Source of the DNA: a virus
Taxonomy: Duplodnaviria > Heunggongvirae > Uroviricota > Caudoviricetes
Reading direction: 5' to 3' (one strand)
DNA length: 4,909 nucleotides
Virus record (IMG/VR): IMGVR_UViG_2703718815_000009
Shown here: positions 1,606 to 3,686 of the stretch, in pieces
Position numbering within the stretch: position 1 is the first letter of the stretch
How the letters are laid out: each line of letters begins with the position of its first letter
Notes under the pieces: model-generated
What the model saw: the letters and a program-made list of their open reading frames with translations, nothing else
Told to the model about the DNA's origin: nothing
The model's database searches: none
Program-made: the position numbers and the translations under genes

Positions 1606-1794
1606 GTGTTAAGCACAGATCGCTTTATACGTGAAAAAGAATGTCAGCAACTTACAGGCCTGAGCCGCTCATGTCGGTATCGCCTGGAGAAGACTGGACA
1701 ATTCCCATCACGGCGTAAACTCGGCGGTCGTTCCGTTGGCTGGTCTTTATCCGAAGTTCTGGCATGGAAGGACAGCCGCGAGGCAGTTCACTAA
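1606..1794 (+). CDS. alpA: AlpA-family phage regulatory protein (small winged-HTH activator/excisionase-like)
   Basis: 62-aa ORF with GTG start at 1606, preceded by an AAAGGGGG Shine-Dalgarno at 1594-1601. The translation LTGLSRSCRYRLEKTGQFPSRRKLGGRSVGWSLSEVLAW matches the AlpA-family pattern (TG-x-SR-x3-Y ... FP ... KLG-x-RSVGW ... SEV-x2-W). Its position directly after a P4-type integrase is typical. Confidence 0.85.
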   Translation: MLSTDRFIREKECQQLTGLSRSCRYRLEKTGQFPSRRKLGGRSVGWSLSEVLAWKDSREAVH

Positions 1795-2056
1795 TCAGGC
1801 TGGCGGCGCACCGCCGCCACCCATCCACTAACACAGAGATCTAACCATGAATACTGGATATACGCCCGAACAGGGGCGGGGCTTCGTTCGTCCTGGTGAA
1901 ACTAAAAAGCCATGTTATCGGGTATTTTCAGGCATAAAAAAAGCGGCCCCGATAAGGAACCGCCTTTCTGAACAATTAACCTGCTGCGAAAAAAATGGAT
2001 CAGTGCAGGGGAATTATATCAACCGTGTGGCGAAGCGCCACAATTGCCGGATAACA

Positions 2057-2088
2057 GGCAAAACAAAGGCGACCGCAAAAGGGTCGCC
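2057..2088 (-). terminator. Rho-independent terminator for the minus-strand transcription unit
   Basis: On the minus strand: GGCGACC (stem), CTTTTGC (7-nt loop), GGTCGCC (stem), followed by TTTGTTTTGCC. On the plus strand the same hairpin is followed by AGTGGGAAC with no U tract, so it is oriented to stop leftward transcription from the 2691 gene. Confidence 0.6.
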
Positions 2089-2154
2089 AGTGGGAACAAG
2101 GGAAAACAAAAGCATCACCAACAATGCCACATTTGCGGCTGGTGGGCAATGCAA

Positions 2155-2328
2155 TCAGTCTGGTTCAGTTCGTTGCCATACCTGCAATGAGCGCTTTTCC
2201 CTGTACTCTTTAAGGAATTGCTCAAGGGCAAAAGCACATGGCGCGAATCTTTCTGATTCATGCTCTATCTTTCTGCGTCGTCTTTTCCGTGTCGGTGATA
2301 ATGTTTTGGTCAATTCTTTATCGGTCAT
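2155..2328 (-). CDS. Hypothetical small arginine-rich protein (57 aa), doubtful; may instead be a 3' UTR
   Basis: ORF MTDKELTKTLSPTRKRRRRKIEHESERFAPCAFALEQFLKEYREKRSLQVWQRTEPD. ATG at 2328-2326 is preceded by AGGA with a 7-nt spacer. It lies 57 nt downstream of the regulator gene and about 70 nt upstream of the minus-strand terminator, so it is inside the predicted transcript. Against: it uses AGA/AGG/CGA Arg and ATA Ile codons that the neighbouring genes avoid, and no domain is recognisable. Confidence 0.3.
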   Translation of the reverse strand: MTDKELTKTLSPTRKRRRRKIEHESERFAPCAFALEQFLKEYREKRSLQVWQRTEPD

Positions 2329-2385
2329 TGTGTTGTCCTGCATAGCAATGCGCCGTAATACCTTACACCACGGCGCTGGTGATGG

Positions 2386-2691
2386 TTACTCCTGCTCTTT
2401 GGCCTTGCGACGCTGGAGTTCTTCACGCGCGACGGTGACGAGTTGCCCGATCTCCTCGGCAGCTTTAACTCCGATTTTTTCCACCTGCGCCAGCGCATCG
2501 AGCGAAGAAACCAGGGGGTTTTCTCCGCTTCCTTCTGCCTGGCGGCGGGCGATCTCACCGCGCATGGCGGTTACTATGAATCCGGCGTTGCTTTCGCCGT
2601 CCAGTTTTACGGATTCCATGCCTTCAAAAGCATCATGTGGGATACGAATTGAAATCTGTTTTGATTTGTCGTTGATAGTGTTTTTTGCCAT
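2386..2691 (-). CDS. Small putative DNA-binding regulator, possibly ribbon-helix-helix (Arc/MetJ-like) with a charged helical C-terminal tail
   Basis: 101-aa ORF starting at the ATG at 2691-2689, preceded by a strong AGGAGA Shine-Dalgarno with 6-nt spacer (the upstream in-frame ATGs lack an RBS). Codon usage is good. The N-terminus KQISIRIPHDAFEGMESVKLDGESNAGFIVTAMRGEI has the strand-helix-helix spacing of Arc-type repressors (compare Arc FNLRWPREVLDLVRKVAEENGRSVNSEIYQRVM), a fold-level inference only. The gene abuts an operator-like region with inverted repeats. Confidence 0.7.
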   Translation of the reverse strand: MAKNTINDKSKQISIRIPHDAFEGMESVKLDGESNAGFIVTAMRGEIARRQAEGSGENPLVSSLDALAQVEKIGVKAAEEIGQLVTVAREELQRRKAKEQE

Positions 2692-2713
2692 GTGCATTCT
2701 CCTAAACAAAAGA

Positions 2714-2789
2714 TGTGATTCAGTATACACAAAAAAGAATCACAAAAAATACTTGACCTGTGATTCAGTTGATTTTAATTTAAATCACA
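2714..2789. promoter_or_regulatory. Divergent promoter/operator region with two copies of TGTGATT-N17-AATCACA around a TTGACC -35 element
   Basis: TGTGATTCAGT occurs identically at 2714-2724 and 2759-2769. Inverted partners GAATCACA (2737-2744) and AATCACA (2783-2789) lie at the same offset, giving two ~31-bp sites 45 bp apart. Rightward promoter candidate: -35 TTGACC 2753-2758, 17-bp spacer, -10 TAATTT 2776-2781. Leftward -10 candidate: TATACT (reverse complement of 2722-2727). The second operator overlaps the rightward promoter spacer. Confidence 0.6.
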
Positions 2790-2814
2790 CCTCAGTAAGA
2801 GGATGTAAACGACA

Positions 2815-2848
2815 ACGCCCCGAACTGTTTGCGGCAGTAGCGGGGCGT
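2815..2848 (+). other. GC-rich stem-loop in the 5' leader of the rightward operon (ACGCCCCG ... CGGGGCGT, 8-bp stem, 18-nt loop)
   Basis: Read directly as a perfect 8-bp inverted repeat, with additional CTG/CAG pairing possible inside the loop. There is no downstream U tract, so it is not a terminator; it lies between the predicted promoter and the RBS at 2867-2870. Confidence 0.4.
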
Positions 2849-2878
2849 CTAACCAAACCGTTAAACGAGGTAACGATT

Positions 2879-3223
2879 ATGGCTGGAACACAGCATACCC
2901 AAACTCACCCTAAATTTATATACACCTTCCTGGCGGTGCACCGTGATTGCATAGCTGACGGTAAAAGCACTGTACACGTAGCCGCTGATACGCTGGTTGA
3001 TGCCTGCGAGATGCTCAATGACATGGGTTATATCTCGGCAACATGGAAAGGGCGCGAAGAAAACACGCTGTTTATTCAGAAATGCGAAAACAATTTTATC
3101 TGGCGTTTTATCGCCCTGAGCACGGCACAACCGCGCGTGATTACCATTGAGGCCACCAGCGAACAGGAAGCACGCCAGCGTGATGGTATTCGCCGCCCGT
3201 ATTCGTCAGGGGGTACGCCATGA
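2879..3223 (+). CDS. Hypothetical protein (114 aa), first gene of the rightward operon
   Basis: ATG at 2879 preceded by GAGG (2867-2870) with 8-nt spacer; stop TGA 3221-3223 overlaps the next start (ATGA). This is the only credible part of the 458-aa frame 1847-3223 in the ORF track. No domain recognised. Confidence 0.7.
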   Translation: MAGTQHTQTHPKFIYTFLAVHRDCIADGKSTVHVAADTLVDACEMLNDMGYISATWKGREENTLFIQKCENNFIWRFIALSTAQPRVITIEATSEQEARQRDGIRRPYSSGGTP

Positions 3224-3480
3224 GCAATAACACCCGTCCGGACGCAGTCGCCGAAGCAATCAAAACACTGATTGATGCGCTGATTGATATTTCTGTTATC
3301 GCAGACAAGGCGCATAAGCACGCCACCAGTGAAACAGAATATGCCGGGGCTTTCGTTCCTCACTCACTGGCTGTTATGCAACTTAGTGCTGATATGGCAC
3401 TGAATGAGGCTAAAGCCATCCTGATTGCTGATTGTGAAAATGGGGGGGGGGTATGCGTGATGATCGTTTTAATGCCCTGA
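3220..3480 (+). CDS. Hypothetical protein (86 aa); 3' end runs through the G10 tract
   Basis: ATG at 3220 overlaps the upstream stop (ATGA); GGGGG at 3208-3212 gives an RBS at 7-nt spacing. Alanine-rich and predicted helical. The last 13 codons (GGGVCVMIVLMP) lie after the homopolymer and look like out-of-frame read-through, so the true C-terminus is uncertain. Confidence 0.55.
   Translation: MSNNTRPDAVAEAIKTLIDALIDISVIADKAHKHATSETEYAGAFVPHSLAVMQLSADMALNEAKAILIADCENGGGVCVMIVLMP
3442..3451. repeat. G10 homopolymeric tract at the junction of two overlapping ORFs
   Basis: Ten consecutive G read directly at 3442-3451, encoding GGG of the upstream ORF and ending 1 nt before the ATG (3453) of the next. 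G11 would fuse the two ORFs in frame (...ENGGGGMRDDRF...); G9 would end the upstream ORF at GGGYA-stop. Confidence 0.95.
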
Positions 3481-3686
3481 AACAGGAATTTGATGGCGCA
3501 CCGGAAGATACAGATATTGCGCTGTTATGTGTTGCTGACATGGTAAAAGCTGCAAGTTTTTTACTGGAAACCGCCGAACATTCAGGAACGGGTAGCGATA
3601 TTCTCAATATTGCGTCGGACTATGCGGAATATGTGGCAGAGGCGCGTTACAGAAGAAAATTCCCGGAGAATGTAAGCCATGTGTGA
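3453..3686 (+). CDS. Hypothetical protein (77 aa); possibly the C-terminal half of a frameshift-split or slippage-controlled gene
   Basis: ATG at 3453 immediately after the G10 tract; the 5' G residues of the tract (3442-3445) could act as a Shine-Dalgarno at ~7-nt spacing. Stop TGA 3684-3686 overlaps the next start (ATGTGTGA). Acidic and alanine-rich, no domain recognised. Confidence 0.5.
   Translation: MRDDRFNALKQEFDGAPEDTDIALLCVADMVKAASFLLETAEHSGTGSDILNIASDYAEYVAEARYRRKFPENVSHV

Follow-up and report, generated by a model that had tools for sequence, protein, structure and literature searches.

Are phage-inducible chromosomal islands (PICIs) of Gram-negative bacteria kept silent by a repressor of their own? 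In the literature these satellites are described as AlpA-activated: AlpA has been published as necessary and sufficient for the induction of the PICI EcCICFT073 and the capsid-forming PICI (cf-PICI) EcCIEDL933, and whether a global repressor exists is stated to be unclear. The question is raised by a window of 4,909 nucleotides (the whole stretch of DNA analysed here; IMG/VR record IMGVR_UViG_2703718815_000009), which its gene content marks as the left end of an Escherichia coli cf-PICI. Between a small leftward gene (2386-2691) and a rightward replication operon the window carries a set of inverted repeats. We propose, with a probability of about 0.7, that the 76 bp at 2714-2789 form an operator with four sites for the product of the gene directly to the left, a ribbon-helix-helix (RHH) protein, and that this operator lies over divergent promoters, where it would serve both autoregulation of the regulator gene and gating of the rightward replication operon.

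The repeats are exactly as the original prediction described them. TGTGATT-N17-AATCACA matches the window twice, at 2714-2744 and 2759-2789, with starts 45 bp apart; the chance expectation is 0.00, and none of 200 dinucleotide-preserving shuffles had even one match. The heptamer TGTGATT occurs in four copies (either strand) against 0.93 expected, all of them inside 76 bp. The identical 11-bp core is likewise present in both units, as the direct repeat TGTGATTCAGT at 2714-2724 and 2759-2769 (spacing 45). Sites and predicted promoter elements are arranged as follows.

2714-2722, plus strand: operator site 1, TGTGATTCA, over the predicted leftward start at about 2716; the leftward -10 lies 2 nt upstream
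2728-2723, minus strand: TATACT, predicted -10 of the leftward promoter P_L, which would drive the regulator gene; no convincing -35
2736-2744, minus strand: operator site 2, reading TGTGATTCT on this strand, with its AATCACA core at 2738-2744; flanked by the leftward -10 and the leftward -35 region
2753-2781, plus strand: predicted rightward promoter P_R, -35 TTGACC (2753-2758), 17-nt spacer, -10 TAATTT (2776-2781)
2759-2767, plus strand: operator site 3, TGTGATTCA, abutting the rightward -35, inside the promoter spacer
2781-2789, minus strand: operator site 4, AATCACA core at 2783-2789, just past the rightward -10 and over the predicted start at about 2788
2790-2802, plus strand: CCTC AGTAA GAGG, a small stem-loop at the 5' end of the rightward mRNA

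The centres of the sites are 24, 21 and 24 bp apart, i.e. about two helical turns, so that all four face almost the same side of the DNA. One 45-bp tandem duplication would yield both units in a single step, and the array could then be chance or the relic of such an event, with no present function. However, beyond the site sequences the two 45-bp units have little in common, and the four-site layout recurs with other sequences in 10 genera, the sites being kept while the flanks diverge. A functionless relic is thus barely conceivable.

The regulator gene (2386-2691, minus strand) encodes a 101-aa protein of the YlcI/YnfO family. It matches NCBIfam NF041551 over residues 9-50 with 65.3 bits against a cutoff of 30, which places it within the family, and PHROG 6522 with E=2e-58. 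Its close homologues carry the YlcI/YnfO name in RefSeq and are called CopG or Arc-like in some sources; altogether, 214 homologues were found across Enterobacterales. A beta-strand is located at about residues 12-18 (KQISIRIP). In the AlphaFold2 (AF2) model this extended segment (12-18) is followed by two helices, 19-28 and 35-52, and then by a long helix at the C-terminal end (59-100), a layout that fits the beta-alpha-alpha order of RHH proteins. An hhalign comparison put regulator residues 8-30 on Arc residues 5-27 with a weak score (E=0.0035), and QISIRIP came to lie over QFNLRWP, the strand of Arc; in Mnt, its counterpart is the strand HFNFRMP. The hallmarks of an RHH protein, an N-terminal strand in register and two helices, are therefore found, with weak scores. 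In an alignment of 20 homologues the protein is conserved throughout save the beta-strand, which forms discrete types. Short family members of 59 aa are without the C-terminal part and go with palindromic sites. The C-terminal half of the regulator contains LDALAQVEKIGVKAAEEI, which resembles a helix-hairpin-helix motif. No characterised YlcI/YnfO (NF041551) member was found in the literature, the coverage of which was incomplete, so that prior work may exist. The K-12 gene ylcI adjoins the cos/nohD region of DLP12, a different context, and no comparable operator was seen there.

Fifty loci were collected from Escherichia, Enterobacter, Erwinia, Xenorhabdus, Photorhabdus, Serratia, Phytobacter, Klebsiella and Edwardsiella as well as one contig labelled Martelella. 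They comprise 27 distinct switch sequences. When the loci are aligned by anchoring on the -35 hexamer, one layout is common to all: site 1, TATACA box, site 2, TTGACn, site 3, -10, site 4. The four positions are fixed; the sequence of the sites is class-specific and tracks the beta-strand of the regulator.

Class A: beta-strand KQISIRIP or RQISIRIP; site TGTGATTCA
Class B: beta-strand QLTTVRVP or QLFTVRVP; site TGTGTTTCA
Class C: beta-strand QSLTARIP; site TGTAAGnC
Class D: beta-strand Q(L/V/M)KN(I/V)R(I/F)P; site GTGTGTA, in the order -> -> <- <-
Class E: beta-strand QQ(L/I)NARFP; site GG(T/G)ATTCA
Class F: beta-strand QTVAARVP (the 59-aa short form); site palindromic, GTGTTnAACAC

The sites of four proteins were also predicted from the beta-strand before their loci were fetched, as three class predictions, and all of these held on the newly fetched loci: an E. 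coli protein (P0048) has the Xenorhabdus-type sites expected of it and a Klebsiella protein (P0097) those of the Enterobacter type, while TGTGATT was confirmed for the proteins from Edwardsiella (P0076) and K. michiganensis (P0116), which are 65-71% identical to the window regulator. In another locus (L001) the N-terminal half and the operator are kept and the C-terminal half is different. A crude score, the matches of the site-4 9-mer at sites 1-3, amounts to 7.5/9 within and 5.8/9 between classes; it is blurred, and we did not rely on it because of register offsets and the one-base difference between classes A and B. Class A is present in 35 of 5,426 E. coli genomes, always as a single copy, which is too rare to inform on co-residence within a class.

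The promoter elements share the fixed layout. TTGACn keeps its position in 24 of the 27 loci, and the aligned rightward -10 reads TAAAGT, TAATAT or TAACAT in other classes; in L009 and L049 a full TATAAT overlaps this position, inside the same N17 spacer. On the other side, the TATACA box between sites 1 and 2 is kept in classes A and B and L006 has a minus-strand TATAAT; we infer that TATACT at 2728-2723 is the leftward -10. Equivalents of the small 5' hairpin, with other sequence (e.g. CCTTGA..TCAAGG), stand in the relatives.

From this arrangement a mechanism can be outlined. The two promoters would stand back to back, the rightward one driving the Icd-like gene and the replication operon and the leftward one the regulator gene. 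Each -10 would have a site on either side, in a gap of 17 bp, and the outer sites would each cover a predicted transcription start, so that bound RHH dimers would block RNA polymerase at both promoters. One dimer may occupy each 9-11-bp site, and it is plausible that the long C-terminal helix bridges the sites. With its promoters blocked, the satellite replication operon would be silent and the repressor autoregulated. Together, regulator gene, operator, leader and first gene (about 2386-3180) would be an exchangeable 'immunity-type' cassette, of which the PICI and cf-PICI satellites of enterobacteria have six or more specificity classes. The core of the original prediction, an autoregulated repressor that also controls the replication-side operon, is strongly supported by this comparative evidence; binding, repression and transcription starts are what the sequence leads us to expect.

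Several observations weigh against this proposal. The hexamers TTGACC, TAATTT and TATACT, which had been put forward as divergent promoters overlapped by the repeats, are present at their places, but a generic sigma-70 promoter scan of the window lists neither P_R nor P_L; we assign the promoters by positional conservation only. The rightward -10 TAATTT is weak (3/6 against TATAAT), and the leftward promoter has no recognisable -35. A distance of 21-24 bp between site centres is unusual for RHH proteins, which normally bind adjacent subsites. When the AF2 monomer was compared with the PDB using Foldseek, no RHH structure and no meaningful match was obtained, a null result that is uninformative because the monomer of an obligate dimer was used, and a PDB sequence profile search gave a weak match of residues 45-86 to the helix-hairpin-helix domain of Hef (1x2i, E=0.011), which we take as a lead only. 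Moreover, the operator is only 23 bp from the regulator start codon, and co-inheritance explains part of the class association. Since linkage contributes, our argument rests on the concerted change of four sites at fixed positions and on their independence from other linked genes. Finally, published work explains induction via AlpA alone and calls the repressor of Gram-negative PICIs unclear. The term 'master switch', chosen in the original prediction, is too strong in any case: since AlpA is the published inducer and a conserved long open reading frame (ORF) runs across the switch, the operator is better regarded as one layer of a multi-layer switch.

Could the repeats be the target of another protein? 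AlpA comes to mind because of its published role in both model islands and because alpA lies about 900 bp upstream of the repeats on the same strand; it might switch on the rightward operon directly from here. Yet the identical regulator and operator were found with five unrelated AlpA/HTH_17 types (23-36% identity), as well as with five integrases, and, conversely, single AlpA types were seen with two to three operator classes (the 68-aa AlpA with A and E, the 92+73-aa pair with A, D and E). In EcCIEDL933, the experimentally studied prototype, int and alpA are 90% identical in DNA to those of the window and the operator is nevertheless different, and next to alpA itself there are other repeats, GAACAA and GACACAA, with 10-bp phasing. 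AlpA sites are therefore a very unlikely explanation, and these pairings indicate that alpA is context for the switch and not the binder of the TGTGATT sites. Even less probable is a host factor by which the physiology of the host would act on the island. The core pentamers of CRP half-sites are TGTGA and TCACA, and TGTGA-N6-ATACA at 2714-2729 forms a weak CRP-like arrangement; a CRP site, however, has the form TGTGA-N6-TCACA, and the gap between the pentamers here is 21 nt, not 6. Already within E. coli, these four positions are occupied by TGTGTTTCA, GTGTGTA, GGTATTCA or GTGTTnAACAC. We excluded a host factor because it could not follow the five site types found within this one species.

A more restricted role of the RHH protein, as autoregulator of the small leftward operon only, in the manner of an antitoxin or accessory gene, has somewhat more in its favour but is still unlikely. 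RHH proteins are common as antitoxins, the regulator has a weak Pfam match to PSK_trans_fac/Rv0623 (E=0.015), and a small basic ORF follows its gene. On the other hand, in every class the rightward -10 is bracketed by sites 3 and 4, which also adjoin the conserved -35, the small ORF (62 aa) is missing from many loci with the same regulator, and the module is always located between alpA and the replication operon. The product of this 62-aa ORF was also considered as the site-specific binder and rejected, because it is 98% identical in EcCIEDL933, whose operator differs; both the 62-aa ORF and the first rightward gene vary independently of the operator. In EcCIEDL933 (L054, NZ_CP008957.1, about 42600-42870, minus strand) we found an unannotated, non-homologous RHH ORF containing ..FRMRISPELKEQF.. 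/ ..QFRMRISPELKEQFDKEAQSDGISLANWLKELG.., which sits antisense within what is annotated downstream of alpA as a 248-aa 'hypothetical protein'. Next to it come TTGACA, two repeats with GGTCACC (its own operator) and the same leader; besides int and alpA, this island also has the 62-aa ORF of the window. An operator of the adjacent RHH regulator that serves both promoters is thus the reading we retain.

What, then, is the function of the leader between the operator and the first rightward gene? The original prediction had placed a GC-rich hairpin here as a potential second layer of control. The hairpin stands: its arms ACGCCCCG (2815-2822) and CGGGGCGT (2841-2848) are 100% complementary, the leader is conserved, and 11 of 18 pairs show compensatory changes. 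Its assignment to the sense leader, however, does not agree with the strand on which it is selected. In the window the minus strand folds with -31.6 kcal/mol (z=-3.9) and the plus strand with -27.7 kcal/mol (z=-1.9), and the minus-strand fold is the more stable one in all 25 homologues (means of -34.0 and -22.7 kcal/mol). RNAalifold gave 25 pairs and -29.2 kcal/mol for the antisense, but only 10 pairs and -8.8 kcal/mol for the sense strand. Among the non-Watson-Crick cells in the sense-strand helices, 44 are A.C and 2 are G.U, which means that wobble pairs form only in a minus-strand RNA. A U-rich tail follows the hairpin on the minus strand only. Judging from these results, the hairpin structure is selected on the minus strand, and it is most likely the terminator of a cis-antisense RNA and not a fold of the sense leader. 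The predicted elements are:

2806-2886, minus strand: cis-antisense RNA (predicted, about 80 nt); two stem-loops, the 3' GC hairpin being the terminator
2897-2892, minus strand: TATGCT, candidate -10 of its promoter, 7 nt upstream of where the 5' stem begins

Such an RNA would run from about 2886 to 2806 and end at the GC hairpin, in the order 5' stem-loop, UGGUUAGA spacer, 3' GC hairpin (2848-2815) and U-rich tail. The predicted 5' stem-loop, with a loop of the anti-Shine-Dalgarno type (CCUCGUU) that presents CCUC, is complementary to the Shine-Dalgarno sequence at 2867-2870 and the ATG at 2879, so that the RNA could pair over both the ribosome-binding site of the first gene and its start codon, like RepX of R1162 and SymR. 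We infer that TATGCT is the -10 of this RNA; across the classes T1, A2 and T6 are nearly always kept despite other codons (TATGAT, TATAAT, TACGAT, TAGACT), and several classes have TGn upstream of it. Against the antisense RNA it must be said that its promoter has no -35 and that the Rfam models of its counterparts remain well below their gathering scores: RF00043 (R1162-like antisense RNA) matches the window over its full length with 18.6 bits (gathering 55), and RF01809 (SymR) matches the antisense strand of relatives, also full-length, with 33.3, 32.0 and 24.7 bits (61). The architecture matches both families and membership is not established. On balance, a RepX/SymR-like cis-antisense RNA over the ribosome-binding site and start of the first gene seems rather probable.

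Alternatively, the hairpin might work in the sense leader, where it would be an attenuator or else an immunity RNA that is processed like P1 C4 and P4 CI. In P1, the c4 RNA is upstream of icd in the c4-icd-ant operon, and the hairpin of the window is likewise upstream of an Icd-like gene. In addition, an ACCA-containing tail follows the stem, and the helices with compensatory changes score on the sense strand, too. Matches to C4 and isrK have been reported in some Gram-negative PICIs (PMC10111431). We found no match to Rfam C4 or isrK at E<=1 in the window or at E<=10 in 2770-2900, and no Rfam family at all above threshold in the whole window or the leader, so that the P1 C4 / P4 CI idea was dropped; the wobble pairs, the consensus energies and the position of the U-rich tail also speak for the minus strand. 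A sense-strand function thus appears improbable to us, and the preferred interpretation remains the antisense RNA.

Two side observations concern this element. Islands with the switch often encode a protein with a ProQ/FinO domain, beside SSB and PerC (L018, 5596-6138; L017, L019, L020, L021 and L039), and this protein may be regarded as a candidate chaperone of the predicted antisense RNA. The same leader/antisense element together with the start of the Icd-like gene also occurs in phage genomes, namely Klebsiella phage P12620-1 (L002, 2300-2570) and phage mEp460 (L003, 2460-2580); in P12620-1 it adjoins an RHH gene of the EcCIEDL933 type and an inverted-repeat operator after TTGACA.

The whole switch is crossed by a further feature:

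1847-3223, plus strand: long ORF of 458 aa, in frame with the Icd-like gene, starting 53 nt after alpA

This ORF is open antisense to the 62-aa ORF and the regulator gene, and then through operator and leader. In 21 of the 27 distinct loci the frame of the Icd-like gene is open for 660-1230 nt upstream of the ATG, whereas the other frames close within 2-120 nt. Even the intergenic part with the AT-rich operator has 0 stops in the long-ORF frame against 2-9 in the others (P ~0.003-0.025 per sequence), and in related loci the start of the long ORF abuts or overlaps the stop of alpA or AntA. Since the encoded peptide looks like junk, openness rather than sequence seems to be selected. A long ORF next to an alpA homologue and in frame with a shorter gene is the nested arrangement known from P4. 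Conceivably, an AlpA-controlled upstream unit is transcribed and translated through 1847-3223 across the whole switch, and such read-through would bypass the repressor and the antisense RNA, similar to the nested eta/kil of P4. The absence of a long open frame from 5 of the 27 loci counts against this scenario, and we propose a translated, AlpA-driven bypass only tentatively. If true, it would reconcile a repressor with the published induction by AlpA alone.

How does this switch compare with known systems? Arc and Mnt of the P22 immI region are small autoregulated RHH repressors, too, which read the major groove with their beta-strand and have operators over divergent promoters. Mnt has a C-terminal helical oligomerisation domain, and the 101-aa regulator has a long predicted C-terminal helix. 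However, there is no significant overall sequence similarity between Arc or Mnt and the window regulator, and their half-sites are adjacent, about 11 bp apart, in contrast to four sites at 21-24 bp centre to centre. The Omega repressor of pSM19035 is an RHH protein that binds WATCACW heptads, which are contiguous, present in 7-10 copies and direct or inverted in orientation. As a lead, compared by motif only, AATCACA fits WATCACW, and the flexible orientation parallels the orientation switch between classes. Stl/Rpr of Gram-positive PICIs (Staphylococcus aureus pathogenicity islands, SaPIs) is derepressed by a helper-phage protein. Its gene is likewise divergent from the excision/replication operon with an operator in between, but it is not an RHH protein and has no homology to the window regulator. 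By position and operator geometry, the regulator would fit an Stl/Rpr-like PICI repressor.

In the satellite P4, translation of a long form from upstream transcripts overrides immunity (PMC10111431). The P4 immunity region (P_LE, CI RNA and nested kil/eta after the alpA homologue vis) resembles the window in that a long ORF begins ahead of an internal early promoter and shares its frame with a nested gene; the likeness is in the layout of 1847-3223 around 2879-3223, and the ORFs were compared by layout only. P4 differs in its processed CI RNA on the sense strand (Rfam C4 clan), which was not detected here, and in that it lacks an antisense-embedded protein repressor. R1162 makes RepX, an antisense RNA of 75 nt with two stem-loops over the repA ribosome-binding site; it is bound by FinO and has a GUUA linker, the counterpart of which would be UGGUUAGA between the stem-loops of the predicted RNA. 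Like RepX (R1162/RSF1010) and SymR, the latter would have about 75-80 nt, two stem-loops and a 3' tail, begin close to the start codon of its target and lie over the target's Shine-Dalgarno sequence and AUG; a RepA-family helicase is encoded in the target operon here, too. Unlike in these systems, the target is an Icd-like gene and not repA or symE, and the RNA is a prediction.

RHH repressors on divergent promoters are already known, as Arc and Mnt show. What appears to be new is the protein family, the wide four-site geometry with a readable code, the combination of antisense RNA and read-through, and the setting in a Gram-negative PICI. No prior description of RHH proteins or Icd-like proteins in PICIs or of SpLE2 small RNAs was found in the literature, which was covered incompletely, so that earlier work may exist. 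With odds a little short of even, the cassette may be the repressor system that has been 'missing' from the PICIs and cf-PICIs of Gram-negative bacteria: an RHH protein with a beta-strand-operator code in at least six classes, a RepX/SymR-like antisense RNA, and a P4-like read-through ORF by which AlpA would override both. The module would have been hidden because the repressor gene is antisense in the 'unknown gene downstream of alpA' and unannotated in EcCIEDL933. Gram-positive coccal satellites are silenced by a master repressor, and a swappable cassette between alpA and the replication genes, if true, would fill the Gram-negative gap. It would give the uncharacterised YlcI/YnfO family a testable function and provide natural matched RHH-operator pairs, differing by as little as one base per site, which would be useful for studying and engineering DNA recognition. 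It would also suggest how several related islands coexist in one genome, and the antisense RNA and read-through ORF would tie PICI regulation to P4 and IncQ plasmids.

The other genes of the window are in line with the assignment to a cf-PICI.

1-1230: P4-type integrase gene
1606-1794, plus strand: alpA (Pfam PF05930, E=3e-18)
2088-2068, minus strand: terminator after the 62-aa ORF, from a program scan
2155-2343, minus strand: 62-aa basic ORF downstream of the regulator gene (PHROG 21027)
2879-3223, plus strand: Icd-like gene, 114 aa, first of the rightward operon (NCBIfam NF033153, E=7e-13)

The leftward operon consists of the regulator gene (2386-2691) and the 62-aa ORF, and ends at the terminator. 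The rightward operon contains the Icd-like gene, the product of which has a cell-division inhibitor-like motif at its C-terminal end, small ORFs, a DUF4222 gene and a gene for a RepA-type helicase. We define a cf-PICI by int, alpA and a replication module together with its own capsid, protease, portal, connector, HNH, TerS and TerL genes, and no tail genes. An E. coli contig (L018) is 99.6% identical to the window and continues beyond the shared block with genes for SSB, a ProQ/FinO-like protein, capsid, protease, portal, HNH and terminase, adjoining roxA. Between roxA and the flank it has the gene set of a cf-PICI, and the STEC299 relative has the same set. The prototype, EcCIEDL933, occupies the same site as the window island. 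Related islands are present in 1,918 of 5,426 complete E. coli genomes.

Some further features of the region were noticed. A run of ten G at 3442-3451 lies between the ORFs 3220-3480 and 3453-3686, which are two halves of phrog_2512 (154 aa) and form a single fused 154-aa ORF in L023, L027 and L028; the tract could be a frameshift, a slippery sequence or a sequencing error. The int-alpA spacer has five GAACAA-type repeats with 10-bp phasing (1275-1324), two to three GACACAA repeats just upstream of alpA (1525-1554) and a perfect 12-bp hairpin (1417-1445). The repeats, which are distinct from the TGTGATT sites, are candidate AlpA or Int sites, and the hairpin is a candidate int terminator. The int-alpA RNA motif RF02996 had no match in the Rfam scan of the window and was found in an Edwardsiella relative (L047, 6143-6211) with 45.8 bits against a gathering score of 35.8. 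Finally, some islands with the window-type switch sit inside a prophage terminase gene (L034, 5808-8231; L016; L025); an insertion of the L034 type leads to a fused TerL-integrase ORF of 807 aa and matches the published 'helper-embedded PICI' configuration.

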